Assembly: GCA_041650615.1 (NCBI GenBank)
Contig: JBAZKU010000001.1
Coordinates: 23,385-87,384 of the forward strand
DNA from: Minisyncoccota bacterium
Lineage (GTDB): Bacteria > Patescibacteriota > Minisyncoccia > Phycocordibacterales > UBA9973
Direction: 5' to 3'
DNA length: 64,000 bases
The notes below the pieces were generated by a model that was not told the origin of the DNA, searched no databases, and worked only from the letters and a program-made list of their open reading frames with translations. Shown in pieces: positions 3,094 to 57,111 of this stretch. The translations under genes and the position numbers were made by a program. Every line of letters starts with the position of its first letter. Position 1 is the first letter of the stretch.

Positions 3094-4716
3094 TTAGAAA
3101 ATGCTAAAAATTTTCTCTAAAAATCTCACAAACCAGTTCCTTTTTGGAGTTTCGGTGTTTGTAGGGGGTTGGGAAAGATCAATAGCGTTTATGACTGCCG
3201 CAGCGTTTTGGTTTGCAAGGCTTTCTAGACTTGCTGTTTGTTTTATTTGTGTATCCTTTTTTGCTGTTTGTTTTGTTAACTTTTTTTCTATTTTAAGAGG
3301 GACTGGTTCCTCTTTTATTTTCTCAAATTTTTGCATTATTTGATTCCAAGTTTTTCCAGAAAGCGCCGTTACTGTATAAGCGGTTCCCCAAATTTTATTT
3401 TGTATAATGTCATCTCTTATTCCTCCATCAGGATCTTGATTGAAAGCCAAATAATCAAGGGGAGTATTTCCATTTCTTATCCAATCTTCTGGTTTTTCAT
3501 TCAACCCAAGTATGCCTTCCATCGCCCAAGCAGTAGAAGAAACATTATCCCAACCGCCATTGTCTTTTTGATTTTGTTTTAGAAACTCTTTAGCCTTTGC
3601 TAAGCTTTCTCCTATACCTGAGGTAGAAGAAAAAGCTGAAAGTGCTTCTATCCCGGCCCCAGTCATATCCACATTACTATCCCAAGAGCCGTCTTCTTTT
3701 TGTTTGCTTAAAATAAAAGCTATATCATCGGCTATCATTTTTTCGCTGGAAAGGAATCCGGCATTTTGTAAGACAATCAAAGCAAAAATATCGTCATTGT
3801 CTTCATTAATATCACCAAATTGCTTTCCATCAAAACTGTCAGTTATTTTTTTAATATAATTTTCACCGTTTGTATTATATGGATTGAGTCCTAGGGACAT
3901 CAAAGCCATCGCATGTCTTTCATAATCCGTCAAAAGCGTACCTGTATTTTTATTTTTAAATAAATACTCTATGAGCTTTATCTTTTGGTCTTGGTAATCT
4001 AAAGTTGTTGCCAGTGAAACAGCAATCCAGTCTGTATAAAGATTTTCATCGAAAGAACCATTTTCTTTTTGCTGTGAAATTATGAATTCAAAAGCCTTCT
4101 TTAAGTCAAAAATCGGTTTTATCGGATCCTTGACAATATATGATCCTCCCTTTTTACTACTTGCACTGCTTTCTTGCACTGGTGGAATTTCAGGTTCAGG
4201 TATCGGGTCAATCGGGTCAATGGGGTCTATAAAATTTAATAAAATTAAATCATTGGGTTGTAATTCATACTGATTTAAACCTGTAGTCCCATCAGTCCCA
4301 TTTAAAGACCAGCTCCAATAGTGATAGACGTCATTATTATCCTTATCTTTGGTCGTATAACCGGCTATATTATTTAAGGAATTTAAAAAAGCACCAGGAG
4401 CCCAACTCCAATTCCAATCGCTTGGAATTCCTGACTGTAAAATAGCGCAATAGGGTGTTGTTTTTAAATCCGAAGTGGCTGCATTATCATTATTACATGC
4501 ATTAACATTTATATCTTGATTAAATATTGAATCAGTTTTGTCAGTTATAGTTAAATGAATAGCAATCGGTTCTGGGGTAAGGGGAGTAATATCTTCGGTA
4601 ATTTCGGTAATTATCGGGGGATCTGTCACCCCAATTTCTTCTTCAGCGCGGACTATTCCAACGATTGAGGCTAATAAAATTAATACTATAAGCAGAATCT
4701 TTTTTATATTTTTCAT
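3094..4716 (-). CDS. secreted alpha/alpha-toroid repeat protein (prenyltransferase/squalene-cyclase-like Q-x-x-D-G-[GS]-[WF] repeats) with PIDPIDP linker
   Basis: Signal peptide MKNIKKILLIVLILLASIVGIVRA; four repeats QKENGSFD / QKEDGSWD / QKDNGGWD / QDPDGGIRD as in terpenoid-cyclase/prenyltransferase alpha6-alpha6 barrels; lies downstream of the DUF4430 gene in the same operon. Confidence 0.5.
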   Translation of the reverse strand: MKNIKKILLIVLILLASIVGIVRAEEEIGVTDPPIITEITEDITPLTPEPIAIHLTITDKTDSIFNQDINVNACNNDNAATSDLKTTPYCAILQSGIPSDWNWSWAPGAFLNSLNNIAGYTTKDKDNNDVYHYWSWSLNGTDGTTGLNQYELQPNDLILLNFIDPIDPIDPIPEPEIPPVQESSASSKKGGSYIVKDPIKPIFDLKKAFEFIISQQKENGSFDENLYTDWIAVSLATTLDYQDQKIKLIEYLFKNKNTGTLLTDYERHAMALMSLGLNPYNTNGENYIKKITDSFDGKQFGDINEDNDDIFALIVLQNAGFLSSEKMIADDIAFILSKQKEDGSWDSNVDMTGAGIEALSAFSSTSGIGESLAKAKEFLKQNQKDNGGWDNVSSTAWAMEGILGLNEKPEDWIRNGNTPLDYLAFNQDPDGGIRDDIIQNKIWGTAYTVTALSGKTWNQIMQKFEKIKEEPVPLKIEKKLTKQTAKKDTQIKQTASLESLANQNAAAVINAIDLSQPPTNTETPKRNWFVRFLEKIFSIF

Positions 4717-4734: not shown

Positions 4735-5181
4735 TTAATTCACGCTATCTTCATATTTCCAAATTACAATATCTCCCGGAATCATTTGATAATTTGAGAC
4801 TCCAATTGTTGCTTTTTTGTCATTTACATAATAAATCCAATTTTTGTCCCCGTTATTCTTTACTCCGTTTATCTCTTCAATAAATTTTCCCATCCCAGAA
4901 TAAACCTTGTCCTTAAAACTTATTTTCTTTTCCTTTTGCAGCTGTATCATGAAGTCATAGACATTTTCTTTCTCCGTTATTGATGTTTCCAACTTTTCCC
5001 CATTAATTTGGAGAAATGCTCGGTTTGTTTTTTCTATCTTAGTTGAAGAAAGAGAAGGAGGGGAAACAGAATTTGTACTCCAGCTAACATCTTTTGTAAA
5101 AACAAAAATTGAAAAGAAAAAAAGCGAGATAATAAAACCCAACCATATTATTTTTTTATTATTTTTCTTTATAGTTTCCAT
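4735..5181 (-). CDS. DUF4430 domain protein (transcobalamin/intrinsic-factor beta-domain-like), membrane-anchored
   Basis: N-terminal TM helix; C-terminal YSGMGKFIEEINGV...WIYYVND...GVSNYQMIPGDIVIWKY pattern typical of DUF4430; a cobalamin-riboswitch-like leader lies upstream. Confidence 0.5.
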   Translation of the reverse strand: METIKKNNKKIIWLGFIISLFFFSIFVFTKDVSWSTNSVSPPSLSSTKIEKTNRAFLQINGEKLETSITEKENVYDFMIQLQKEKKISFKDKVYSGMGKFIEEINGVKNNGDKNWIYYVNDKKATIGVSNYQMIPGDIVIWKYEDSVN

Positions 5182-5249: not shown

Positions 5250-5440
5250 GGTAAAACGAAAAAAATTCTGCTCAAGCAGAATTTTGGGGCCTTCAAAAAG
5301 AAGAAGGGATATCCTGCTCGGGAAAATTAAAATGATTGATAATCGGACTTGTCTCTGACGATTATGTCAGAGCTTACCGTAGCGGCACTGTACTGGAATC
5401 TAACCAGTTTCCTCAATCATTTCTTACAATTTTTTAACGA
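5250..5440 (-). promoter_or_regulatory. candidate cobalamin (B12) riboswitch with intrinsic terminator, leader of the DUF4430/toroid operon
   Basis: The minus strand reads GGAAACTGGTTAGATTCCAGTACAGTGCCGCTACGGTAAG. This matches the cobalamin-riboswitch core GGGAA..GGTGaaAaTCC..CgGtCCCGCcACtGTaa. It is followed by the hairpin ATTCTGCTTGAGCAGAAT plus a T-run, then the start codon at 5181. Confidence 0.55.
5258..5284 (-). terminator. rho-independent terminator (expression platform of the riboswitch)
   Basis: 7-bp stem ATTCTGC/GCAGAAT followed by TTTTTTT on the minus strand. Confidence 0.5.
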
Positions 5441-5530
5441 ACCCCTTAATTTTATGCTTTCTTAATTATCTGTCAATTTTTACTGTGGATAAAGGAAATA
5501 TATTATTACAAAGAAAGGGTAAAAAATCAC

Positions 5531-6905: not shown

Positions 6906-8066
6906 CTATCGTTGCTCCCTCACCACATCTTTAAGCCGTAGGGCAACAAAAAGTCCGGCAAATGATACTGTGCCTAATACAAAGAAGAGATATTCAAAAG
7001 ATGGAACAAGAAAAAGAACAAAAACAGCTGAAAGTGGAGCAATAATATAAGAAACAGAAGGAGCATTACGGAAAAAACTGATTTCGTCAGCATCCTTTTC
7101 ACTTACAATTTTAAAAAAGTAGCTTTCATTCATAGTTTCTATTGTAGCAGCACCCACGCGTGTGATAAAAAGCAATAAAGCCCATACCCAAAGTATGGAT
7201 TCTGAAATAAAAGGAATTGCTAAAACAGACGATGTCATAATTAAGAAGCCTGCAATAAGCATTTCTTTCTCCCCGATTTTGTCTGAGAATTTGCCTAAAG
7301 GAAAATTCAATATAACAAATGGAATGAGCATTATAGAAAAAATAATGCCTATTTTATCCCAACCGAAACCCATATATTCATGTAAATATATAGGCGTATA
7401 AATCACCATCCAAGAATAAAAAAAATGTAGAATGAAATTGCTCAAATATATCTTTGAAAGATGCCTATTTTTTATAAAAGATTTGATTGTTTTTAATATT
7501 GAACCCCTTTTATATTCCGGGTCTTTGAAATCACGCAAAAATAAAACAAAAATAGACATTACTAGAACCATGAATCCTGCACCTAAAAGATAAATTCCCA
7601 TAAAAGAACTTTTATTAATAATTGAACCGGAAATTAGTTGAGCAACAACCCAAGCAAAATTTATAACCATCAAAAAAAATCCTCGCAAGGCTCCCACAGA
7701 AGAATTTCTAGAAAAATCTTCAATAAAAATATCCAATGAAGCAATAATAAAGTAAATTGACAAGAAATAAAGAATAAAGGCGGGGATTATAATAAAAACG
7801 CTGTTTCCAAAGGCAAGTAAAATAAACGATAAGAACATTAACAAACAAGATAGGAGAATTGTTAAACGATTCCCCAGACGAGTCAGAATTTTAGGCATTC
7901 TTAATAAACCTCCAATAGTTACGATAGAAGCGGCTACGTAAATAATACCTACATAGTTTTTTCCAACGTAAGTTTCTAGAAAACTTGAATTTATATAAGA
8001 AACGAGGGCCATCGGTATGGAAAATAAAAAAGTAGCTAAATATATTATTTTTCTATTATGTTTCAT
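6906..8066 (-). CDS. MFS-type transporter (about 12 TM helices)
   Basis: Polytopic hydrophobic ORF. The start is taken as the ATG immediately after the ATCTCTAACGGG repeat arm (MKHNRK...); the six-frame track starts 18 nt upstream at 8084. Confidence 0.5.
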   Translation of the reverse strand: MKHNRKIIYLATFLFSIPMALVSYINSSFLETYVGKNYVGIIYVAASIVTIGGLLRMPKILTRLGNRLTILLSCLLMFLSFILLAFGNSVFIIIPAFILYFLSIYFIIASLDIFIEDFSRNSSVGALRGFFLMVINFAWVVAQLISGSIINKSSFMGIYLLGAGFMVLVMSIFVLFLRDFKDPEYKRGSILKTIKSFIKNRHLSKIYLSNFILHFFYSWMVIYTPIYLHEYMGFGWDKIGIIFSIMLIPFVILNFPLGKFSDKIGEKEMLIAGFLIMTSSVLAIPFISESILWVWALLLFITRVGAATIETMNESYFFKIVSEKDADEISFFRNAPSVSYIIAPLSAVFVLFLVPSFEYLFFVLGTVSFAGLFVALRLKDVVREQR

Positions 8067-8150
8067 CCCGTTAGAGATTTCCATGAATTATTATTAATAG
8101 TTAATTTTATTTTTTAAGTTTTTTCCGTTATCTCTAACGGGATTTCATCT
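8061..8150 (-). repeat. start-codon-abutting bipartite inverted repeat, copy 2 (minus orientation, serves the MFS gene)
   Basis: The minus strand reads ATGAAA-TCCCGTTAGAGAT, a 51-nt spacer, then ATCTCTAACGGG-ATGAAACAT. Confidence 0.8.
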
Positions 8151-10148: not shown

Positions 10149-10187
10149 ACCCACACACTTATTTTTTTAAAAAATAAGTGTGTGGGT
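10149..10187 (-). terminator. perfect palindrome ACCCACACACTTATTTTTTT/AAAAAATAAGTGTGTGGGT, a terminator-like member of the CCCCCACACTTATTTT palindrome family
   Basis: 19-bp perfect inverted repeat immediately 3' of the solute-binding-protein gene. Confidence 0.5.
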
Positions 10188-13451: not shown

Positions 13452-13582
13452 ATGTATCCCGTTAGAGATTAATTAGTTTAATGGGAAAATTTAAATTAAA
13501 ATATTAAAAAAGTTTATTTAGTCAATAAATTATAAAAATAAGTACGAGAATCTAAAGATTCTCTATCTCTAACGGGATGTAT
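13452..13582 (+). repeat. start-codon-abutting bipartite inverted repeat, copy 3 (ATGTAT-CCCGTTAGAGAT ..95 nt.. ATCTCTAACGGG-ATGTAT)
   Basis: Distal arm ends at the ATG of the DUF167 gene; direct ATGTAT duplication. Confidence 0.8.
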
Positions 13583-14526: not shown

Positions 14527-14758
14527 TCTCCCTGAGCGTCTAGTCCGTTTTGGATAGGACGTTTTTGTTTCAATCTTTGAAAAATGAATAGAAGTACAAG
14601 CCCCGCCACTGCGGGGCAGTGCAAGTTTGATATGTTTTTTTGAGTAATAATAATCAAAGAGCTAGGACACATGACAAAATGCAAAAACATTGCTGTTTTT
14701 TGTTTTGTTTCGTTCTAAACCCGTACACCTATTTATATAGGTGTAGGGTAAAACTTTT

Positions 14759-16295
<1,537 letters not shown>

Positions 16296-16550
16296 AATTC
16301 AATTTGAAAAATGTTCCAATTTTGATTTATCAAAATTGAGAATCCCGCCCTCGGCGGGATCTGACCTCGGAGAGGTTGAGCTTATTGAGTCGGTATTGTG
16401 TAGCTCAATTGACTACACAATAGTTTGTTTGAACTTAAAACAATCTGACAAGCGTGGAAAGACAGGCAAAACCTGCCTCGCATTGCTAGCAATAGCGACG
16501 CAAGGCGGGTAAAAAAGTTTAAAAGAACGAAACAAAACATAGAACAGCAA

Positions 16551-16594: not shown

Positions 16595-17650
16595 ATGTCG
16601 GAGAATAATACTAAAATCAAACTAGGAATACTTCGAGGCGGAGCAGGAAAACACTATGAATCTTCTTTGCGAAAAGGCGGAGATCTTATTTCGCATATTT
16701 TCAAAAATTTGTCTGATAAGTATAAAACAGTTGATATTTTGATTGACAAAAAAGGCGAATGGCATATTAATGGCGTACCCATAAATCCTGCGGATTTGGT
16801 ACGTAAAGTTGATATCGTTTGGAATACTACACATCCGAATGTTTCTTCTATCCTGCAAAATTTTTCTATTCCTCATATTAGCAATAGTATTTTTTCGTCC
16901 ACATTGGAAAATAGCCGAGAAATGTTAGAAGAACATATAAAAAGCATCGGAGTTCAGATGCCCAGATCCATAATCCTGCCTTTATATCAAAAAGATTTTG
17001 ATGGGACTAGAGAAAGATACGCTATTAAAAAAGCAAAAGAAATTTTTGAAAAATTTGGCTCGCCCTGGATTGTGAAATCTTTTACAAATAATTCCGATAT
17101 GGGTCCCATTAGAGGCCGCGAGGGCTCGCAGCGACCCTCTGCCTCTAACGGGATGGGCATACATCTGGCAAAAACTTTTGGAGAATTAGCGGGAGCGATA
17201 GAAGATGGAGTAATTCATGAAAAAAGTATTTTGATTGAAGAATTTATTTCAGGCAAAGTTGCTTCGGTGCATTCTGTCGTTGGTTTTCGCGGAGACCTGC
17301 CTGCGCAGGCAGGACAAATTTATACTTTTCCTCTGGGCAAACCTTTTGGCAACCCGCCTAGACTCCCGCCTAGACTTGGCGAGGCTGGCGGCGAGGCTGG
17401 TTTTTCTTCCAGTGAAAAAGAAAAATTGATTTCTCTGGCAAAAGATTTGCATAATCATATTGGAGCAAAACATTATTTAAAATCTGATTTTGTTTTAAAT
17501 TCCCGAGGCAAAATTTTTCTTTTAAATATAGAGTCTATTCCTGACTTAAAATCGGACTCGCATTTTTCCCAAGTCTGTGAATCTGTTGGCGCTAAGGCAC
17601 ATCACGTAGTTGAACATATTTTAGAAAGAGCGTTAAATAAGAGTATATAA
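16595..17650 (+). CDS. ddl: D-alanine--D-alanine ligase-like ATP-grasp enzyme with in-frame GC-rich insertions
   Basis: N-terminal IKLGILRGGAGKHYESSLRKG Ddl-like start and ATP-grasp length; about 45 extra residues include PPRLPPRLGEAGGEAG encoded by two tandem 24-nt repeat units. Confidence 0.6.
   Translation: MSENNTKIKLGILRGGAGKHYESSLRKGGDLISHIFKNLSDKYKTVDILIDKKGEWHINGVPINPADLVRKVDIVWNTTHPNVSSILQNFSIPHISNSIFSSTLENSREMLEEHIKSIGVQMPRSIILPLYQKDFDGTRERYAIKKAKEIFEKFGSPWIVKSFTNNSDMGPIRGREGSQRPSASNGMGIHLAKTFGELAGAIEDGVIHEKSILIEEFISGKVASVHSVVGFRGDLPAQAGQIYTFPLGKPFGNPPRLPPRLGEAGGEAGFSSSEKEKLISLAKDLHNHIGAKHYLKSDFVLNSRGKIFLLNIESIPDLKSDSHFSQVCESVGAKAHHVVEHILERALNKSI
17143..17155 (+). repeat. solo distal-arm-like motif CTCTAACGGGATG embedded in-frame inside ddl
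   Basis: 13-nt identity to the family's distal arm, next to a GC-rich hairpin GAGGGCTCGCAGCGACCCTC. Confidence 0.5.
17353..17400 (+). repeat. 2 tandem copies of the 24-nt GC-rich in-frame element (CCCGCCTAGACT)2(YGGCGAGGCTGG)2 inside ddl
   Basis: Same unit as in secA (20386-20409) and typA (50056-50079). Confidence 0.8.
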
Positions 17651-17723: not shown

Positions 17724-17892
17724 CATTTTGCTTTAATTCTCCCTTGTTGGTACAATTTACTTATAAAATTGTTTTTATCTGTAGCGGGTGATCGCACTCA
17801 CATAGGCACATATGTTGGAGTTTCGCCATCACCCGCTTCAAATGGAAACAATTTTTTTATTCTAAAACCATTTTTGATTTTCAAAAAGTTAT

Positions 17893-18027
17893 CCCCCACA
17901 CCTACTTTTGTATTATTCTGATTTTTCAATAAAATTACCAAAGTACTTTACATTTTCTCGTAAAAACTCTTTTTTAGGATTATTCTGTTAATAGAATTAA
18001 AAATTGATACAAAAGTAAGTGTGGGGG
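17893..18027. repeat. split member of the CCCCCACACTTATTTT palindrome family: arms 17893-17909 and 18011-18027 separated by a 101-nt AT-rich insert
   Basis: CCCCCACACCTACTTTT ... AAAAGTAAGTGTGGGGG; lies in the 600-bp noncoding region between tRNA-Pro and secA. Confidence 0.6.
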
Positions 18028-18191
18028 TTATCCACAGTTTTGCATAAAAACTTATTGTATTATCTTTTAATATGCGGGATAATTAAAGTGTTCCCGCAAT
18101 AATTATTTAAAAATATTTTTATTGTGTTTAAAAAAGATATTTTGAGGTCGTATTATTGCAAACTAAATTAAAAAATTAATTTAAAACTAAA

Positions 18192-28765: not shown

Positions 28766-28906
28766 AATAATATCTTAAACAAAAAAATCCGCTAAGAAGC
28801 GGATATAAGGCTTAGGTTCTAATTTGACTTGTGTCTCCTTAGGGTTACCCTAAATCCTGCTTTTAATATATTAAAGTAATCTTACTATAATTATATAAAA
28901 AAGCAA

Positions 28907-28945
28907 GCCCCTACACTTATTTTTTTCAAAAATAAGTGTAGGGGC
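28907..28945. repeat. palindrome GCCCCTACACTTATTTTT-TTC-AAAAATAAGTGTAGGGGC, a member of the CCCCCACACTTATTTT family
   Basis: 18-bp perfect arms; lies between divergent gene starts (rpsA at 28765 and the 28959 gene), so it is not placed as a terminator. Confidence 0.7.
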
Positions 28946-28958
28946 AAGTATTTTCATT

Positions 28959-33001: not shown

Positions 33002-33026
33002 GATGTCAAAGTGTCTCTTTGACATC
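33002..33026. repeat. REP hairpin GATGTCAAAG-TGTCT-CTTTGACATC at the 3' end of the RAYT gene
   Basis: 9-10 bp perfect stem; near-identical copy at 33642-33664. Confidence 0.7.
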
Positions 33027-33632
33027 AAAATTTAGTGTTTCTTTTATAAAGCTATTTTGATTACCAAAAACTGAAATTAGTAGTTCTTTGTTAATTATTG
33101 GCAAGTTTCTATTAGAAGAAAAATCTTGATAGCTACTCCATTTGTAATCTTCGGGAGTTTTTACCAATCTATCTTTTACAGGATTCATATGAATATAAGC
33201 CGATGTCCACATGAGTTGAGGATTATTTTCCATAAGTACTGCCTTAAAACAATCTTGAAAAGTATGTCCGGCACTATCATATTTATTATTTATGTATTTA
33301 GAATAACTGGCACATACCTTTGAAATTAATTTTGAAATTGGAATATCTCCAACTTGTTCAATCAGTAAGTGAAAGTGATTTGGCATTAAACAGAATGTAT
33401 GCAATTTAAAATTATTTTTATTTATGTTAGTAATTCTAATTCTTGAATAGGGTATAGCAATTAATTTTTCTTTATTTAATTCTTCTTCGGTAAATCCCAA
33501 ACAAAGTCCAAGTCTAAAAAGAAAAGCCCTATAATCTTGTTCGTCAAAAAATATTTTTTTCTTGTTATTACCTCTGTTATAAATATGGGCAATTGATCCG
33601 CTATTGAATTTTTTATAGTCTCTATTATTCAT
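33006..33632 (-). CDS. REP-associated tyrosine transposase (RAYT; IS200/IS605 Y1-transposase-like)
   Basis: HuH motif CLMPNHFHLLIE and C-terminal NPVKDRLVKTPEDYKWSSY typical of RAYT; flanked by REP hairpins. Confidence 0.7.
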   Translation of the reverse strand: MNNRDYKKFNSGSIAHIYNRGNNKKKIFFDEQDYRAFLFRLGLCLGFTEEELNKEKLIAIPYSRIRITNINKNNFKLHTFCLMPNHFHLLIEQVGDIPISKLISKVCASYSKYINNKYDSAGHTFQDCFKAVLMENNPQLMWTSAYIHMNPVKDRLVKTPEDYKWSSYQDFSSNRNLPIINKELLISVFGNQNSFIKETLNFDVKETL

Positions 33633-33641
33633 TATTATATT

Positions 33642-33664
33642 ATGTCAAAGTGTCTCTTTGACAG
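33642..33664. repeat. REP hairpin ATGTCAAAG-TGTCT-CTTTGACAG just upstream of the RAYT start
   Basis: Near-identical to the 33002-33026 copy. Confidence 0.7.
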
Positions 33665-33722
33665 CAAGTACTTTTGTTGATAACTATCACACAAATATTA
33701 TTTTTTAAGCTATAATATAACC

Positions 33723-34259
33723 ATGTTCACCGACCCGGTAAAAAACTTAAAAGCCTTTGATTTAAGGGAAAATATGATTGTGGCGGATTTGGGCGCTGGT
33801 TCCGGCTTTTATACTATTCCTGCGGCAGGAATAGTTTCCAGGGGAAAAGTTTATGCCATTGAAATACAAAAAGATTTTTTAACAACAATCAAAAATAAGG
33901 CGGCAGAGGCTCATCTTAATAATCTGGAATGCTTCGTAGGGGATATTGAAAAAATAGGCGGGACAAAATTAAAAGACAATATAGTAGATGCCGTAATTGC
34001 TTCCAATATACTTTTTCAAGTGGAAGACAAAGATAAATTTATAGAAGAAGCAAAAAGAATATTGAAACCCAATGGCAAACTCCTTCTTATTGATTGGTCT
34101 GATAATTCGTCCGGTATCGGAGCCAGTTTTGATAAAATTATTCCTAAAAATAAGGCGCGGGAAATGTTTGAAAAGGAAGGTTTCATATGGCAGCGGGATA
34201 TTTCCGCTGGAGACCATCATTATGGTATGATTCTAGTAAAGGGAAATGAATCCCGTTAG
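33723..34259 (+). CDS. class I SAM-dependent methyltransferase
   Basis: Motif I VADLGAGSGFYT and motif post-I/II spacing; about 178 aa. Confidence 0.7.
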   Translation: MFTDPVKNLKAFDLRENMIVADLGAGSGFYTIPAAGIVSRGKVYAIEIQKDFLTTIKNKAAEAHLNNLECFVGDIEKIGGTKLKDNIVDAVIASNILFQVEDKDKFIEEAKRILKPNGKLLLIDWSDNSSGIGASFDKIIPKNKAREMFEKEGFIWQRDISAGDHHYGMILVKGNESR

Positions 34260-34379
34260 AGATTGCATGGTTAATAAATCAGATAATATATAAAAAATGA
34301 CTTTATGTCGAAAATTTTAATAAAAAGTAATATAACTACGGGAATGCAAAGCATTTCCTATCTCTAACGAGATGAAAGG
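34247..34379 (+). repeat. start-codon-abutting bipartite inverted repeat, copy 5 (ATGAAT-CCCGTTAGAGATT ..94 nt.. ATCTCTAACGAG-ATGAAA)
   Basis: The proximal arm overlaps the TAG stop of the methyltransferase gene; the distal arm ends at the ATG of the SBP gene. Confidence 0.75.
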
Positions 34380-35667
34380 AAATTTCCAAATTATAATTTT
34401 AATCGTATTCATTGTTGCTGCTATTTTAGGTGTTTTGGTTTTTTCGGGCGCAATACCTCTTGGAAGTGATGGAGGCGATACCGGAATACAGGGCACGGTT
34501 GTTTTGTGGGGCACAATAAAAGCGGGAATTATTAACACTTTGCTTGATGACTTTAATCGTGGCAATCCCACTTTTATCGTAAAATATGTGGAAAAATCTC
34601 CGGATACTTTTGATAACGATTTATTGGAAGCACTCGCTGCTGGAGTTGGTCCGGATATGTTTTTTATAACTGATGATTTGGTATTTAAATACAGTAATAA
34701 AATTTATACTATTCCATATGCAAGTTTCCCGGTTAATACTTTTAAAAATACTTTTGTCGGCGCGGGAGAAGTTTTTTTGACTTCAAAAGGAGTTTTAGCT
34801 TTCCCGATTACTGTTGACCCTATGATGATGTATTACAACAGAACCATTCTTGATGCGAATGGTGTTGCTTACCCTCCGGCATATTGGGATGAATTTGCCA
34901 ATTTTGTTTCGCTTTTGACTAAAAAGGACAGTAGAGGCGTGATTTTAAAAAGCACAGTGGCCATGGGGCAGTTTTCAAATGTTTTACACGCCAAAGATAT
35001 ATTATCCGCTCTTTTTATGCAGGCAGGAAATTCAATTGTAGCCGAGAAAAATGGGGTTTTTATATCTACCTTAAGCCAGAGCGATGGAAAATATGACTTG
35101 GGTTCTATCTTGGAATTTTATACGAATTTTGCCGACCCATTAAACAGTCTTTATTCTTGGAATAAATCTTTTTCCGATTCGCAAAATGCTTTCAGTGCGG
35201 AAGATTTGGCATTTTATTTTGGTTATGCGAGCGAATTGGAATCCTTGGTTAATAAAAATCCAAATCAAAATTTCTTGGTTACGTCTATGCCTCAGATTAG
35301 AAATAGCAATTTAAAATTAACTTCTGCCCGTACCACAGGCGTTGCCATCTCTTCCTTCTCTAAAAACTTTAATACTGCCTTTACGGCAGCAGGTCTTTTG
35401 TCCAGCGGGGATTTTGCTTCAGAGCTTGCTGCTTCTTTAGGAATTGCTCCGGCTCGCCGAGACTTGCTTAACGCTAAGCCAACGGATGCATATTTGCCAA
35501 CCTTTTATGCTTCGGCATTTTTTGCAAAAAGCTGGCTTGATCCATCGCCCCAGAATACCGATAATATTTTCCAAGGGATGGTTGAAAAAGTGCTTTCCGG
35601 CAGTATGTCCGTGACCCAAGCTGTGAGTGATGCCAGCGCCAAGCTTGGATTATTATTGGTTAAATAA
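34372..35667 (+). CDS. extracellular solute-binding protein (ABC SBP family 1-like), membrane-anchored
   Basis: N-terminal TM anchor, about 430 aa with SBP-like composition; start codon abuts the ATCTCTAACGAG repeat arm. Confidence 0.35.
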   Translation: MKGNFQIIILIVFIVAAILGVLVFSGAIPLGSDGGDTGIQGTVVLWGTIKAGIINTLLDDFNRGNPTFIVKYVEKSPDTFDNDLLEALAAGVGPDMFFITDDLVFKYSNKIYTIPYASFPVNTFKNTFVGAGEVFLTSKGVLAFPITVDPMMMYYNRTILDANGVAYPPAYWDEFANFVSLLTKKDSRGVILKSTVAMGQFSNVLHAKDILSALFMQAGNSIVAEKNGVFISTLSQSDGKYDLGSILEFYTNFADPLNSLYSWNKSFSDSQNAFSAEDLAFYFGYASELESLVNKNPNQNFLVTSMPQIRNSNLKLTSARTTGVAISSFSKNFNTAFTAAGLLSSGDFASELAASLGIAPARRDLLNAKPTDAYLPTFYASAFFAKSWLDPSPQNTDNIFQGMVEKVLSGSMSVTQAVSDASAKLGLLLVK

Positions 35668-35671
35668 ATTT

Positions 35672-36103
35672 ATGAAAAAAACTAATTTAAAATTATTTCT
35701 GATTGCTGCCTTTGTTTTAGTTGGATTTTTTTCATTATATTTTTTTAGTACAGAAGTCTTGGCGCAAGATACTAATTTGGTTCCTTGCGGAACAATACGT
35801 GATGCGAACAATAACATAACGAACCCCTGCGGTTTTAATGACATAATGACTTTAATAAATACGGTAGTAAAATTTATTTTTATTAATTTGGCTTTACCTA
35901 TCGCTGCTATAATGTTCGCCTATGCGGGATTTGAGCTTGTAACTTCGGGAGGGGAGACTTCCAAAAGAGAAAGAGCCAAGAGAATATTTATCAATGTAGC
36001 TATTGGTCTGATTGTAGTGGCGGCCGCTTTCCTTATAGTTCAGACAGTATTAAAAATAGCAGGATATGATACAGGTAATGGGTGGAATTGGTTTGGATTT
36101 TAA
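35672..36103 (+). CDS. VirB2/TrbC-like small pilin-like protein, paralog 1
   Basis: Signal peptide then hydrophobic helix, short charged loop (SGGETSKRERAKR), hydrophobic helix; start chosen at the internal Met (MKKTNLKL). Confidence 0.4.
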   Translation: MKKTNLKLFLIAAFVLVGFFSLYFFSTEVLAQDTNLVPCGTIRDANNNITNPCGFNDIMTLINTVVKFIFINLALPIAAIMFAYAGFELVTSGGETSKRERAKRIFINVAIGLIVVAAAFLIVQTVLKIAGYDTGNGWNWFGF

Positions 36104-36129
36104 GGTTATAAAGAATATAACCCTGTAGT

Positions 36130-36165
36130 AGAATTTTGGAAAAATTTCACTACGGGGTATAATAT
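36130..36165. repeat. inverted repeat ATAACCCTGTAGT..19 nt..ACTACGGGGTATAAT upstream of pilin-like paralog 2 (contains a TATAAT -10 box)
   Basis: 13-14-bp arms related to the CCCGTTAGA motif by a G/T swap; a second copy overlaps the stop of paralog 2 (36553-36590). Confidence 0.5.
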
Positions 36166-36169
36166 AAAC

Positions 36170-36568
36170 ATGAATTACATTAAGAAAAACTTGCCCAAAA
36201 TTATTTTAGTAACTTTTATATTAGCTTTACCGATTTTATCTTTAGCCCAAAATGGTACAAATCCTCCTCCCGCAGGTAATGGTACAAATCCCCCTGCTAC
36301 AGGTAACGTAAAAATTGTTAACCCTATACATTCAGAAACATTAACCGGGTTAATTAAGACTATTCTGGAAGGAGTAATCAAAATCGGTATGCCCATTATT
36401 GTTTTAGCTATTATTTATTCTGGTTTTCTTTTTGTCAGGGCGCAAGGCAATTCGGAAAAATTAAATGAAGCTAAGCGTACCCTGCTTTACACTTTAATCG
36501 GCGCAGCGATACTCCTGGGGTCGTGGGGTATTGCCTTGCTTATAACAAATACAGTCAAAGCCCTGTAG
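36170..36568 (+). CDS. VirB2/TrbC-like small pilin-like protein, paralog 2
   Basis: Signal peptide, NGTNPP repeat, two hydrophobic helices separated by AQGNSEKLNEAKR loop. Confidence 0.4.
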   Translation: MNYIKKNLPKIILVTFILALPILSLAQNGTNPPPAGNGTNPPATGNVKIVNPIHSETLTGLIKTILEGVIKIGMPIIVLAIIYSGFLFVRAQGNSEKLNEAKRTLLYTLIGAAILLGSWGIALLITNTVKAL

Positions 36569-36633
36569 TAGAGCATAGCTCACTACCGGGTATACATTAT
36601 TAAATAATATTTGTTGATTTTAAATAAAATTTT

Positions 36634-36924
36634 ATGTTATGCACTTTAGCAGCCAATCCTAAACTTCAAGACCTTTTAAGTTATATAAGCTGTATTATTA
36701 ATGGATCGGTGATCCCTGTTATTTTCGGCTTAGCTATAGTTATGTTTATTTGGGGAGTGGTTCAATACGTTATAAATAGCGATGAGGAAGCAAAAAAAGA
36801 GAAAGGCAAGCAATTTATGATTTGGGGCATTATCGGTTTGGCGGTAATGGTAGGTATTTGGGGACTAGTCAAGATAGTAGGGTCTACCTTTGGTATTGAG
36901 TATGTTATTCCACAATTAAATTAG
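36634..36924 (+). CDS. VirB2/TrbC-like small pilin-like protein, paralog 3
   Basis: Shared core VIPVIFGLAIVMFIWGVVQYVINSDEEAKKEKGKQFMIWGIIGLAVMVGIWGLV. Confidence 0.4.
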   Translation: MLCTLAANPKLQDLLSYISCIINGSVIPVIFGLAIVMFIWGVVQYVINSDEEAKKEKGKQFMIWGIIGLAVMVGIWGLVKIVGSTFGIEYVIPQLN

Positions 36925-36931
36925 TTGGCTT

Positions 36932-36970
36932 GCCCCCACACTTATTTTCCCTTAAAATAAGTGTGGGGGC
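36932..36970. repeat. palindrome GCCCCCACACTTATTTT-CCCTT-AAAATAAGTGTGGGGGC, a member of the CCCCCACACTTATTTT family
   Basis: 17-bp perfect arms between pilin-like paralogs 3 and 4; may act as a terminator here. Confidence 0.7.
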
Positions 36971-37056
36971 TTGCATTACTTATTTTGTTTTTTGTGATAT
37001 AATATGGGTATATTATTATTAGGTCGCTTTTATTATTAATATTATTATAAGAATTT

Positions 37057-37431
37057 ATGAAGAAAAAATTAGGTGTGTTGTCGGGTGCTGTTTTAAGTTT
37101 TATGCCACTTATGGCTTTAGCGCAAAATGCGACAGGTTGTGACAGTGTACAACTTGGAACAATCCAAAGTATAATTTGTAAAATCGGTAATATTTTGGAT
37201 ACTATTATCCCGGTTCTTGTTGTTTTAGGGGTAGTCTACTTTGTTTGGGGAGTTGTTACTTATGTCATTTCCAGTGATGAAGAAGCAAAGAAAACAGGCA
37301 GAATGAGAATGATTTACGGTATTATCGGTTTGGTAGTTATTGTTGCTATGTGGGGTCTTGTCGGTATTGTCACCAGAACCTTTGATTTGACTGGTTCTGC
37401 AAATGTCAGTATTCCGACGGTTCCTTTCTAA
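37057..37431 (+). CDS. VirB2/TrbC-like small pilin-like protein, paralog 4
   Basis: Signal peptide MKKKLGVLSGAVLSFMPLMALA and core VYFVWGVVTYVISSDEEAKKTGRMRMIYGIIGLVVIVAMWGLV. Confidence 0.4.
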   Translation: MKKKLGVLSGAVLSFMPLMALAQNATGCDSVQLGTIQSIICKIGNILDTIIPVLVVLGVVYFVWGVVTYVISSDEEAKKTGRMRMIYGIIGLVVIVAMWGLVGIVTRTFDLTGSANVSIPTVPF

Positions 37432-37450
37432 AACATAAAATATGTTCACG

Positions 37451-37525
37451 GATCCCGTTAAAAATTCACAAACGGGATTGTTGTTGGGTGTTTATTAGTT
37501 AATTTCAATTTCTAACGGGATGAAT
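37451..37525 (+). repeat. start-codon-abutting bipartite inverted repeat, copy 6, with an extra internal AACGGGAT arm
   Basis: GATCCCGTTAAAAATT..AAACGGGATTG..ATTTCTAACGGG-ATG of pilin-like paralog 5; the three complementary segments allow alternative pairings. Confidence 0.7.
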
Positions 37526-37849
37526 TTACTCTTTATAAATGTAGCTTATGCAAGTGAAAGTGTTGATGCTTTCATTTCAAATGTTAATAAGCTCATCATA
37601 AACCCGCTCATCATACTGCTTTTCGGTTTGGCGGTAGTGTATTTTCTGTATGGCGTGTTTCAATTTATTTCAAATTCGGCAAATGAAGAAGCAAAAACAA
37701 AAGGAAAGAGTCATATGATTTGGGGTATTATTGGAATTGTTGTAATGATGGGGGTATTCACAATTTTGAATATGATTATGAATACTTTCAATATAGAGGG
37801 AATAAATCCTGAACAGGGGACAGTACAATTGCCTGATTATAATCAGTAA
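37520..37849 (+). CDS. VirB2/TrbC-like small pilin-like protein, paralog 5
   Basis: Core VYFLYGVFQFISNSANEEAKTKGKSHMIWGIIGIVVMMGVFTIL; start codon abuts the ATTTCTAACGGG repeat arm. Confidence 0.4.
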   Translation: MNLLFINVAYASESVDAFISNVNKLIINPLIILLFGLAVVYFLYGVFQFISNSANEEAKTKGKSHMIWGIIGIVVMMGVFTILNMIMNTFNIEGINPEQGTVQLPDYNQ

Positions 37850-37931
37850 ATCTAGTTTGAATTTAAATAAAAGGTAATAAAAAAGGCGATTCATTTGAAT
37901 CGCCTTTTGCGTTGCGTCCTTTAGCGCAACG

Positions 37932-38336
37932 TTATTGCCACCAAGAAAATATAATTGTATCCTTTCCAAAAGGATAAACAAAATAATTTTCTGCTGGCAT
38001 TTTCCACCATTCTTTTATGTGTTCAGAATTTATTCCTGGTTTTTCATTACATATAAAGAATTTTGTGTTATCAGAAGAAAGAACATATTTCGCTTCACCT
38101 CCACCCAATATTCGGGTATAGGATTTTAGTGGATTTAGATATGCCTTTATGGGTTTATCCATTGTGGCAAATCCTTGTCCGCATTTTGGAAATTCAACTA
38201 TTGTTTCGGTGGTTTCTGTTAATGAACAATAATTGATACTTATTATTAAGAATAAGATAAGTATCAATATTACTATCGCTATAAATGCCCCCTTGTTTGA
38301 CAAAATTCCTCCCTGACGAAATCCTTGCTTATGCAT
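37932..38336 (-). CDS. small membrane-anchored protein, hypothetical (co-transcribed downstream of the SPFH gene)
   Basis: 4-nt overlap with the SPFH gene; one TM helix. Confidence 0.3.
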   Translation of the reverse strand: MHKQGFRQGGILSNKGAFIAIVILILILFLIISINYCSLTETTETIVEFPKCGQGFATMDKPIKAYLNPLKSYTRILGGGEAKYVLSSDNTKFFICNEKPGINSEHIKEWWKMPAENYFVYPFGKDTIIFSWWQ

Positions 38337-49358: not shown

Positions 49359-49410
49359 TTTTTTGTTATTTTAAGAAAAGTATGCTATTATTTTATTTAG
49401 AAAATTAATA

Positions 49411-49517
49411 AACGAAGTGAATATAATTTTCTTAACCCTGTTAAATAATTTTTGCTTCGCAAAAATTGCCTAAAGGCATTTAACAGGGTGATGATTTTTA
49501 TAATCACTTCGTTTTTT
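49411..49517. repeat. about 107-nt nested imperfect palindrome immediately upstream of typA
   Basis: AAACGAAGTGA..TCACTTCGTTT outer arms, ACCCTGTTAAAT..ATTTAACAGGGT inner arms, central TTTTGCTTCGCAAAAA palindrome. Confidence 0.5.
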
Positions 49518-49528
49518 AAAAATCAATC

Positions 49529-57023: not shown

Positions 57024-57111
57024 ATGGATCCCGTTAGAAATAGGAAATCTTTAGATTTCCGTCTAGCTAACCAGATTCATAATTATTAGCTTAATTTCTA
57101 ACGGGATGGAA
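57024..57111 (+). repeat. start-codon-abutting bipartite inverted repeat, copy 7 (ATGGAT-CCCGTTAGAAAT ..53 nt.. ATTTCTAACGGG-ATGGAA)
   Basis: Distal arm ends at the ATG of the MgtC-family gene; direct ATGGA duplication. Confidence 0.8.

Follow-up and report, generated by a model that had tools for sequence, protein, structure and literature searches.

A conserved operon of five VirB2/TrbC-like pilin paralogues behind a solute-binding protein gene in a Nomurabacteria-type bacterium

A chromosomal operon of a low-GC bacterium of the Candidate Phyla Radiation (CPR), found in a 64 kb stretch of contig JBAZKU010000001.1 that we call the window, encodes five non-redundant members of the VirB2/TrbC superfamily (PF18895), named here pil1 to pil5, directly behind an orphan gene for a sugar-type solute-binding protein (SBP). 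The five are ancient paralogues, each with its own orthologous group, kept in fixed order under purifying selection, and the array forms a strongly conserved operon of fixed make-up rather than a set of switchable or antigen-varying genes. With a probability of roughly 0.6, we read it as a Nomurabacteria-type Paceibacterota VirB2/TrbC five-pilin operon that is transcribed as two units and supplies a distantly encoded type IV secretion system (T4SS) with the subunits of a heteromeric pilus or conduit. This bears on how ultra-small CPR bacteria draw resources from their hosts, and a VirB2-like pilin array is one of a small number of envelope features with demonstrated essentiality in a cultivated CPR member. 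The basic gene identity is already in public annotation and literature, this kind of feature has been published, and the finding itself is ordinary; what appears modestly new, set against the part of the published tables that was compared, is a clade-wide, virB4-distal and SBP-coupled version of the known array.

Five divergent hairpin proteins of one pilin family

The initial annotation of this DNA, made from the letters alone, had described five consecutive small open reading frames (ORFs) of 96-158 aa as VirB2/TrbC-like paralogues with one architecture: a signal peptide, a hydrophobic helix, a short charged loop and a second hydrophobic helix. The five head-to-tail ORFs are real and all lie on the forward strand (Table 1). 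The upper size does not hold, as the 158-aa version of pil1 starts at a GTG within the upstream gene; because the orthologues begin with MKK or MTK at the ATG at 35672 and gene callers also back this codon, it was taken as the start. A hidden Markov model (HMM) built from the five found no sixth copy among the window ORFs of at least 40 aa.

By hydropathy, all five proteins have two hydrophobic segments connected by a loop with three to five K/R residues, and to this extent the shared architecture stands. A classical signal peptide, judged by motif (K-rich n-region, h-region, xLA↓Q), is present only in pil1, pil2 and pil4. Pil3 is without one and begins at the mature N-terminus of its orthologue, and pil5 has an atypically short N-terminus (MNLLFINVAYA↓S) that is conserved among orthologues as M[ND]L.F..[IV]AYAS. 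Each protein is a small membrane hairpin composed of an exposed N-terminal segment, a first transmembrane helix (TM1), a K/R-rich loop, a second helix (TM2) and a short exposed C-tail. This is the VirB2-type arrangement of a two-helix hairpin with a positive loop and both ends outside, the topology being deduced from the positive-inside rule.

The TM core is common to all five, while the exposed N- and C-terminal segments are strongly different between them. Identity among the paralogues is 21-53%, with pil3 and pil4 as the closest pair (53% over 78 residues). Pil1 has a signal peptide ending in VLA↓QD, a Cys-x-Cys loop, the two-helix pilin core and a C-terminal GYD..WNWFGF. In pil2 the signal peptide (SLA↓QN) is followed by an NGTNPPxxG repeat, encoded by an in-frame tandem repeat (27 nt x 2.1, positions 36251-36306), and then by the pilin core. 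Pil4 has a signal peptide ending in ALA↓QN, two conserved Cys, the loop DEEAKK.GR and a near-invariant TM2 (GIIGLVVIVAMWGLVGIV), of which GIIGLVVIV.MWGLVGIV is nearly unchanging across 28 aligned orthologues. The C-tail of pil5 is acidic (GINPEQGTVQLPDYN).

Comparison with Pfam bears out the assignment as VirB2/TrbC-like pilin paralogues. Using the curated gathering cut-offs for whole-protein scores (26.6 bits for PF18895, T4SS_pilin; 27.9 bits for PF04956, TrbC/VirB2), pil1 to pil5 scored 44.0, 35.8, 36.7, 42.8 and 34.3 bits with PF18895, all above the cut-off, and all 28 pil4 orthologues examined match this family as well. Pil1 also passed PF04956 with 29.4 bits; pil2 (23.8) and pil5 (11.7) were below its cut-off, and pil3 and pil4 gave no match. 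The best NCBIfam match for all five was NF045849, 'Mbov_0395 family pilin-like conjugal transfer protein', with 23.7-34.8 bits against an equivalog cut-off of 40; the five proteins are related to this family but stand outside that equivalog.

A tblastn search of pil1 against plasmids returned only two weak matches, both to small genes within monoderm conjugation clusters of Firmicutes plasmids. One is a Pontibacillus gene for an 'Mbov_0395 family pilin-like conjugal transfer protein', located 4 kb from a gene for a VirB4-like ATPase, and the other is a 'TrbC/VirB2 family protein' gene of Macrococcoides pB8, which adjoins a VirD4-like gene and a pLS20_p028-type gene. With hhalign, a pil1 profile of 16 orthologues aligned over TM1-loop-TM2 with the Mbov_0395 protein (probability 96.9%, E 1.6e-10, 39% identity) and with the TrbC/VirB2 family protein (probability 94.7%, E 6e-8, 28% identity). 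The pil1 and pil4 profiles are mutually related (E 8.8e-6), and 10,094 representatives of 50% identity clusters match the pil4 profile, many of them with two to six hairpins per chain. In NCBI, the protein identical to pil4 has the title 'MAG: pilin [Candidatus Paceibacterota bacterium]', and its nearest named relatives are from Candidatus Nomurabacteria. A reading of the genes as a defence system was also considered and dropped, as PADLOC gave no matches.

Conservation in relatives and the repeats between the genes

One genome per species was scanned and loci were retrieved with pil4, which yielded 79 loci whose ORFs were sorted by class-specific HMMs. Of these, 68 show the complete order GyrA-methyltransferase-SBP-pil1-pil2-pil3-pil4-pil5, the exceptions being mostly short contigs. 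The best match of each window pilin lies at the same array position in 76-79 loci (76 for pil1, 79 for pil2 and pil5), with median orthologue identities of 49, 54, 62, 59 and 64% from pil1 to pil5. Orthology is positional: orthologues scored 112-174 bits versus 0-83 bits for paralogues. Species differ in the exposed N-terminal part of pil1, whose length runs from roughly 30 to several hundred residues (about 740 aa at most), and at position 3, where two or three pilins are often fused or an additional pil4-like gene comes first. Fused hairpins at this position, as doubles of a pil4-like unit with pil3 or as triples, occur in loci L006, L007, L010, L013, L015 and many others, and the database protein P0323 (552 aa) carries up to six pilin hairpins in one chain. 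Such covalently fused units argue for side-by-side packing of different subunits.

The initial annotation had gone further and proposed that the subunits are independently switchable and possibly phase- or antigen-variable, each gene having its own repeat or promoter. The window-specific hairpins and a TATAAT before pil2 would suit this idea, and VirB2 arrays of Bartonella and Anaplasma have been tied to antigenic variation (cited in PMC12102498). We nevertheless regard it as very improbable. Three independent assemblies (ENA, Logan and JGI; L001-L003) were 100% identical to the window over 7.7-20 kb including the array. Samples containing this strain are ENA ERZ27247363, SRR8542065 and JGI 3300037067. 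In a further contig (L004), 97.5% identical and free of indels, the 26 coding differences were 21 synonymous and five non-synonymous, with dN far below dS, and the palindrome stems were unchanged. The array has no slippage or simple-sequence tracts save the one in-frame 27-nt repeat of pil2, and no site-specific recombinase is present except a Y1 transposase described below. No invertible segment is apparent either: with loops of 3-5 nt, three of the four hairpins cannot be invertible promoters, the fourth is a dispersed element, and in relatives all but one of the four internal spacers measure only about 10-20 nt. A conserved single-copy operon in relatives had itself been named as an argument against variation, and exactly this, with fixed order and copy number, is seen in the complete loci. 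A five-subunit set that is fixed, ordered and under purifying selection in Nomurabacteria/Paceibacteria favours a heteromeric structure over antigenic variation.

The repeats are terminator-like hairpins and dispersed selfish or REP-like (repetitive extragenic palindrome) elements, not pilin switches. The named repeats exist, but an inverted repeat does not precede every gene: pil1 has none, pil3 has a second copy of the pil2-type CCCTGTAGTAG hairpin, and most come from dispersed families. Since they belong to such families or are absent in relatives, they are not pilin-specific controls, which corrects an attractive but wrong reading of intergenic palindromes.

The CCCTGTAGTAG 11-mer occurs in the window only at 36121 and 36561, and the two hairpins containing it are lineage-specific, being absent from relatives at 84-85% pil4 identity. 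The TATAAT (36158-36163) abuts the first hairpin 6 nt before the pil2 ATG and is part of a promoter-like site, TTGGAA-16-TATAAT, with 10 of 12 matches. An 86-nt stretch with the second hairpin has a minimum free energy of -20 kcal/mol (z -3.8). Behind pil3 stands a perfect 17-bp palindrome which probably serves the SBP-pil1-3 unit as a terminator or as a stabiliser of its RNA end. It belongs to an intergenic REP-like family with the arms (G)CCCC[CAT]ACACTTATTTT and AAAATAAGTGT.GGGG, which has four sites in the window and 10 arm matches versus 0.95 expected.

The Y1 transposase gene, conserved as a single copy and syntenic in relatives, lies upstream of the array at a distance of 2.7 kb. In NCBIfam it matches 'REP-associated tyrosine transposase' (RAYT) best, with 62 bits, below the 80-bit cut-off. 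An identical hairpin, ATGTCAAAGTGTCTCTTTGACA, borders the gene on each side (33003-33025 and 33643-33665), and the enzyme may mobilise one of the palindrome families.

[quoted passage not shown] The 3' end of this copy gives the AT of the pil5 ATG. The elements have 14-nt inverted ends, ATCCCGTTAGARAT and ATYTCTAACGGGAT (also cited as ATCCCGTTAGA), and an internal hairpin in either orientation; copies also stand before the SBP gene here and before pil4 in several relatives. From the window and 18 loci of relatives (including L005, L006, L009, L019, L024 and L030) we collected 24 elements, and in 18 of these the six bases outside CCCG...CGGG match between the two sides at 5-6 positions, versus 1.6 expected by chance. 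These flanks are 5-6 nt direct repeats (ATGNA.) that co-vary, as in ATGTAT/ATGTAT, ATGAGT/ATGAGA and GTCAAC/GTCAAC, and are therefore target-site duplications. In 26 of 27 cases a real gene takes its ATG from the downstream duplication. Insertion at a start codon which regenerates the start looks unusual, and it may be a more unusual item in the window than the array. No autonomous element was identified for this family, and a literature search for start-codon-targeting MITEs in CPR bacteria found nothing relevant.

Another shared inverted repeat (..AACCCTGTTAAAT / ATTTAACAGGGTGA..), with 42-nt arms, lies just upstream of the BipA gene and also occurs within the spacers between pil3 and pil4 in two other species (L027, L038). 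Downstream of pil5, two adjacent GC-rich hairpins are terminators between the array and the convergent downstream genes.

From SBP>pil1 to pil4>pil5, the spacers of the window measure 4, 66, 65, 132 and 88 nt, and the medians in relatives are 5 (69 loci), 19, 15.5, 123 and 12 nt; the window is atypical in its added length, which consists of the hairpins. Only the pil3>pil4 spacer is conserved, reaching at least 60 nt in 75 of 77 loci, and an extended -10 element (TGnTAYAAT, scored as TGnTAnAAT) occurs there in 64 of 78 cases versus 4.6% of shuffles, often with CTTGCAT 21 nt upstream of the -10 hexamer. A leader motif, ATTATTAG..AGGTCGCTTT (GGTCG), is likewise found in 64/78 spacers versus 2.4% of shuffles, roughly 33 nt downstream of the -10 and 51 nt upstream of the pil4 ATG. 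The leader has no Rfam family and no obvious hairpin, and its motif may be a protein-binding or RNA regulatory site; an Rfam gathering scan found no known RNA family in any spacer of the array. From these sequence features two transcription units are predicted, SBP-pil1-pil2-pil3, perhaps with the methyltransferase gene in front, and pil4-pil5.

Distant secretion machinery and the probable use of the array

VirB2-like pilin arrays are known in Patescibacteria. In Southlakia epibionticum the array SEML1_0006-0019 is essential (Wang et al. 2023, PMC10633639), and Quinonero-Coronel et al. (2025) described 441 arrays of 2-11 pilin genes (PF04956, PF18895) with a mean identity of 25% and a maximum of 54%, placed the T4SS of Patescibacteria in the monoderm MPF-FATA lineage and found that genes for type IV coupling proteins (T4CP) are usually far from virB4 (PMC12102498). 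The array studied here is like them in family, in its tandem, divergent but structurally alike paralogues, and in its chromosomal location in a monoderm CPR host with no relaxase context. Unlike them, it is a fixed set of five orthologous groups across the whole clade, and it lies far from virB4, coupled to an orphan SBP gene next to gyrA, whereas the described arrays are in or near the virB4 cluster.

By the published criterion, an array is at least two tandem PF18895/PF04956 genes within 20 coding sequences (CDS) of virB4; the genes here are tandem, and the proximity is lacking. The window encodes no VirB4 or VirD4, as had been noted before, and no VirB6, and virB4 is absent from the 10 kb on each side as well. 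A search for VirB4 one step beyond each end found only a gene for a VirD4/T4CP-like ATPase of 695 aa, some 35 kb downstream of the array and on its contig (L087, 19701-20606, about 9.7 kb past the right end of the window). It carries DUF87, TrwB_AAD_bind, TraG-D_C, T4SS-DNA_transf and zinc-ribbon signatures and follows dnaK; upstream there is no further T4SS gene. The name given to its relatives is 'type IV secretion system DNA-binding domain-containing protein'; there are 6,698 matches at E < 1e-30, and among the matches listed the family is 67-96% identical across many CPR lineages. In a distant CPR contig (L084, 1985-11758), about ten tandem pilin genes stand directly beside genes for two unannotated proteins of about 778 aa and PrgI (VirB3-like; PF12666, 52 bits). 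A Gracilibacteria locus (L085) was left aside, as that group has an alternative genetic code and does not translate with table 11.

In the mechanism we prefer, the SBP-pil1-pil2-pil3 unit would provide accessory subunits, pil1 bearing a variable exposed N-terminal module, and the pil4-pil5 unit, driven by the conserved extended -10 promoter with its leader, would provide pil4 as the abundant core subunit. By homology with VirB2, the proteins may be inserted into the membrane via Sec/YidC. They would be used by a monoderm-type (MPF-FATA-like) T4SS that bacteria of this group encode elsewhere, and all five together would build a heteromeric pilus or conduit at host-cell contact; polymerisation into an extracellular filament is a prediction. 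By analogy, such a mechanism would fit the essential pilin array of the cultivated Saccharibacterium Southlakia. A link to a T4SS is backed by the coupling-protein gene on the contig, by the pilin genes beside PrgI in L084 and by Table S1 of PMC12102498, which lists VirB4 for six of the seven named genomes with the operon.

Several points weigh against this. Loci of this operon type number 77 (L005-L083), and in none of them does a T4SS machinery gene come closer to the array than 10 kb. The seventh named genome, GW2011_GWB1_40_7, a 548-kb draft with the operon, is VirB4-negative in the same table. In the part of Table S3 compared, the T4SS core of relatives has its own adjacent PF18895 pilin, so the array could serve something else. 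A sequence search of solved structures in the PDB with the pil4 profile gave no match, and Foldseek of the pil4 AlphaFold2 model against the PDB gave none with E < 1 and no pilin, VirB2 or TraA in the top 50. The model is a helical hairpin (helices 36-71 and 75-108) of moderate pLDDT (67), and such a bare hairpin is a poor discriminator in a fold search. Furthermore, the loci were fished with pil4, which biases the estimate of its conservation, and the candidacy of pil4 as major subunit draws on its promoter and conservation.

Table S3 gives the detail for two relatives. In the rows compared, PF18895 matches stand only next to virB4 (PMC12102498). RAAC4_OD1_1 (GCA_000505065.1), whose array stands at about 298 kb, has VirB6, VirB3, TrsD, VirB4 (CDS 535) and VirB2 at CDS 531-537 and one PrgF-profile match (CDS 287) in the array region, the mapping from CDS to position being approximate. 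GW2011_GWE1_32_28 (Nomurabacteria) has a single VirB2 at CDS 352, VirB4 at CDS 354 and nothing around CDS 62-67, where the locus tag of its SBP, UR25_C0001G0062, places the operon. The operon is not in these rows for either genome, and by these rows both thus have one pilin beside VirB4 plus a separate SBP-linked five-gene operon.

An envelope complex independent of T4SS and VirB4, for uptake or as a scaffold, in which five hairpins exapted from VirB2-like ancestors act together with the SBP, could also account for this arrangement. Nearly all loci show the array joined to the SBP gene, at a median distance of 5 nt, and none show it linked to T4SS genes; conservation is higher for the SBP than for the pilins; the T4SS cluster in relatives contains, in the rows cited, a pilin of its own two genes from VirB4; and GW2011_GWB1_40_7 has the operon and is listed as VirB4-negative. 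However, the sequence relationships lead to conjugation-cluster proteins, the surroundings of the array out to 10 kb contain no ABC permease or ATPase gene, and all other named genomes have VirB4, the exception being a small draft. CPR synteny is also very frozen, and GyrA and the methyltransferase are equally linked, so adjacency is weak evidence of shared function. We hold such a complex to be unlikely.

A further alternative is that the paralogues are interchangeable major pilins, used singly for different host strains or surfaces. Their exposed ends differ strongly over a common TM core, the N-terminal modules of pil1 vary widely in size between species, and versatility of host range has been put forward as a speculation (PMC12102498). 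On the other hand, retention of all five orthologous groups in fixed order in 68 of 79 loci argues for five differing roles, all required at the same time; only two transcription units are predicted in relatives, so the genes would not be separately controllable; and the lack of normal signal peptides in pil3 and pil5 also argues for distinct roles. We find single use of this kind improbable.

Like the Gram-negative TrbC/VirB2 pilins (Agrobacterium VirB2, RP4 TrbC, F TraA), the five proteins are small with two helices and a positive loop, three of the five genes encode a signal peptide by motif, and pil1 is above the PF04956 cut-off. Unlike them, pil2 to pil5 are below that cut-off, the host is monoderm and without an outer membrane, there is no evidence for cyclisation or acetylation and no fold-level match to solved pili, and five co-conserved paralogues stand in place of one pilin. 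The best profile-profile matches, the monoderm envelope and the MPF-FATA lineage (PMC12102498) are shared with the pilin-like proteins of monoderm conjugation (NF045849, pB8 TrbC/VirB2, CONJScan PrgF); those are single-copy genes in the transfer clusters of mobile elements, whereas this is a chromosomal five-gene operon below the NF045849 cut-off. With the arrays of Bartonella and Anaplasma phagocytophilum it has tandem divergent VirB2 copies in common, but those of the pathogens are linked to antigenic variation or host adaptation, and the copies here are ancient, ordered and under purifying selection.

Coupling to a solute-binding protein rather than to a secretion ATPase is a hint toward uptake, and a 2025 review has speculated on a conduit role of the pilus in uptake from the host (PMC12857230). 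The operon might in that case be a dedicated nutrient-scavenging organelle in which a heteromeric VirB2-like pilus or conduit, assembled by the distant T4SS or by another route, works with a co-transcribed sugar-type SBP that captures host-derived molecules where epibiont and host touch. We regard this as a doubtful proposal; if true, the organelle would offer a way, through the genome, to approach the 'T4SS pilus as uptake conduit' proposed for Patescibacteria.

Features around the array

Table 1. Features of the window, with positions counted from its first letter
Feature	Positions	Strand	Remarks
Cyclase-like/DUF4430 surface protein gene	3094-4716	-	540 aa; downstream of the riboswitch
DUF4430 protein gene	4735-5181	-
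Cobalamin riboswitch	5289-5463	-	Rfam 34.8 bits (cut-off 31.5); upstream of the DUF4430 protein gene
16S rRNA gene	14756-16304
D-Ala-D-Ala-ligase-like gene	16595-17650		follows the 16S rRNA gene
Y1 transposase gene	33006-33632	-
SBP gene (SBP_bac_1)	34372-35667	+	orphan; distant MalE/sugar type, membrane-anchored; Pfam 49 bits; remote PDB matches to sugar-binding proteins
pil1	35672-36103	+	143 aa
CCCTGTAGTAG...CACTACGGGG hairpin, pil1-pil2	36120-36158	+	RNA fold -18.8 kcal/mol, z -4.0
pil2	36170-36568	+	132 aa
Second CCCTGTAGTAG hairpin, before pil3	36560-36591	+	overlaps pil2 stop codon; centroid fold -17.7 kcal/mol
pil3	36634-36924	+	96 aa
Palindrome GCCCCCACACTTATTTT(5)AAAATAAGTGTGGGGGC, 3' of pil3	36932-36970	+	REP-like dispersed family
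pil4 promoter and leader	36971-37056	+	CTTGCAT 36970-36976; extended -10 TGATATAAT 36995-37003; 5' untranslated motif ATTATTAGGTCGCTTT (GGTCGC 37022-37027)
pil4	37057-37431	+	124 aa
MITE-like element ATCCCGTTAAAAAT...ATTTCTAACGGGAT	37452-37521	+	arms 37452-37466 and 37507-37521; third arm 37470-37478
pil5	37520-37849	+	109 aa
Two adjacent GC-rich hairpins, AAAAGGCGATTCA..TGAATCGCCTTTT then GCGTTGCG..CGCAACG	37881-37932		-31.3 kcal/mol, z -6.1
Inverted repeat upstream of BipA gene	49405-49519
REP-like family sites	10149-10187, 17890-18030 (split arms), 28895-28957, 36932-36970
MITE-like full copies	265-345, 8065-8143, 13456-13578, 34250-34373, 37452-37521, 57028-57107		lone arm 17146-17154

The SBP gene is the first gene of the conserved unit, and its stop lies 4 nt before the pil1 ATG. 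SBP orthologues are 65-84% identical, and a homologue search returned close orthologues only (at least 65% identity).

The chromosomal nature of the window is seen in its gene content, which includes SecA, GyrA, IF-2, ClpB, RNase J, Mur ligases, AlaRS, the 16S gene and tRNAs. Its ORFs of at least 500 aa all encode housekeeping, solute-binding or surface proteins, namely SecA, GyrA, IF-2, ClpB, RNase J, BipA, AlaRS, an SBP_bac_5 protein and the cyclase-like surface protein. No 23S or 5S rRNA gene occurs anywhere in the window along with the 16S gene, so the rRNA genes appear unlinked. The cobalamin riboswitch and the DUF4430 genes beside it (Table 1) probably form a B12-capture locus in this metabolically minimal bacterium.

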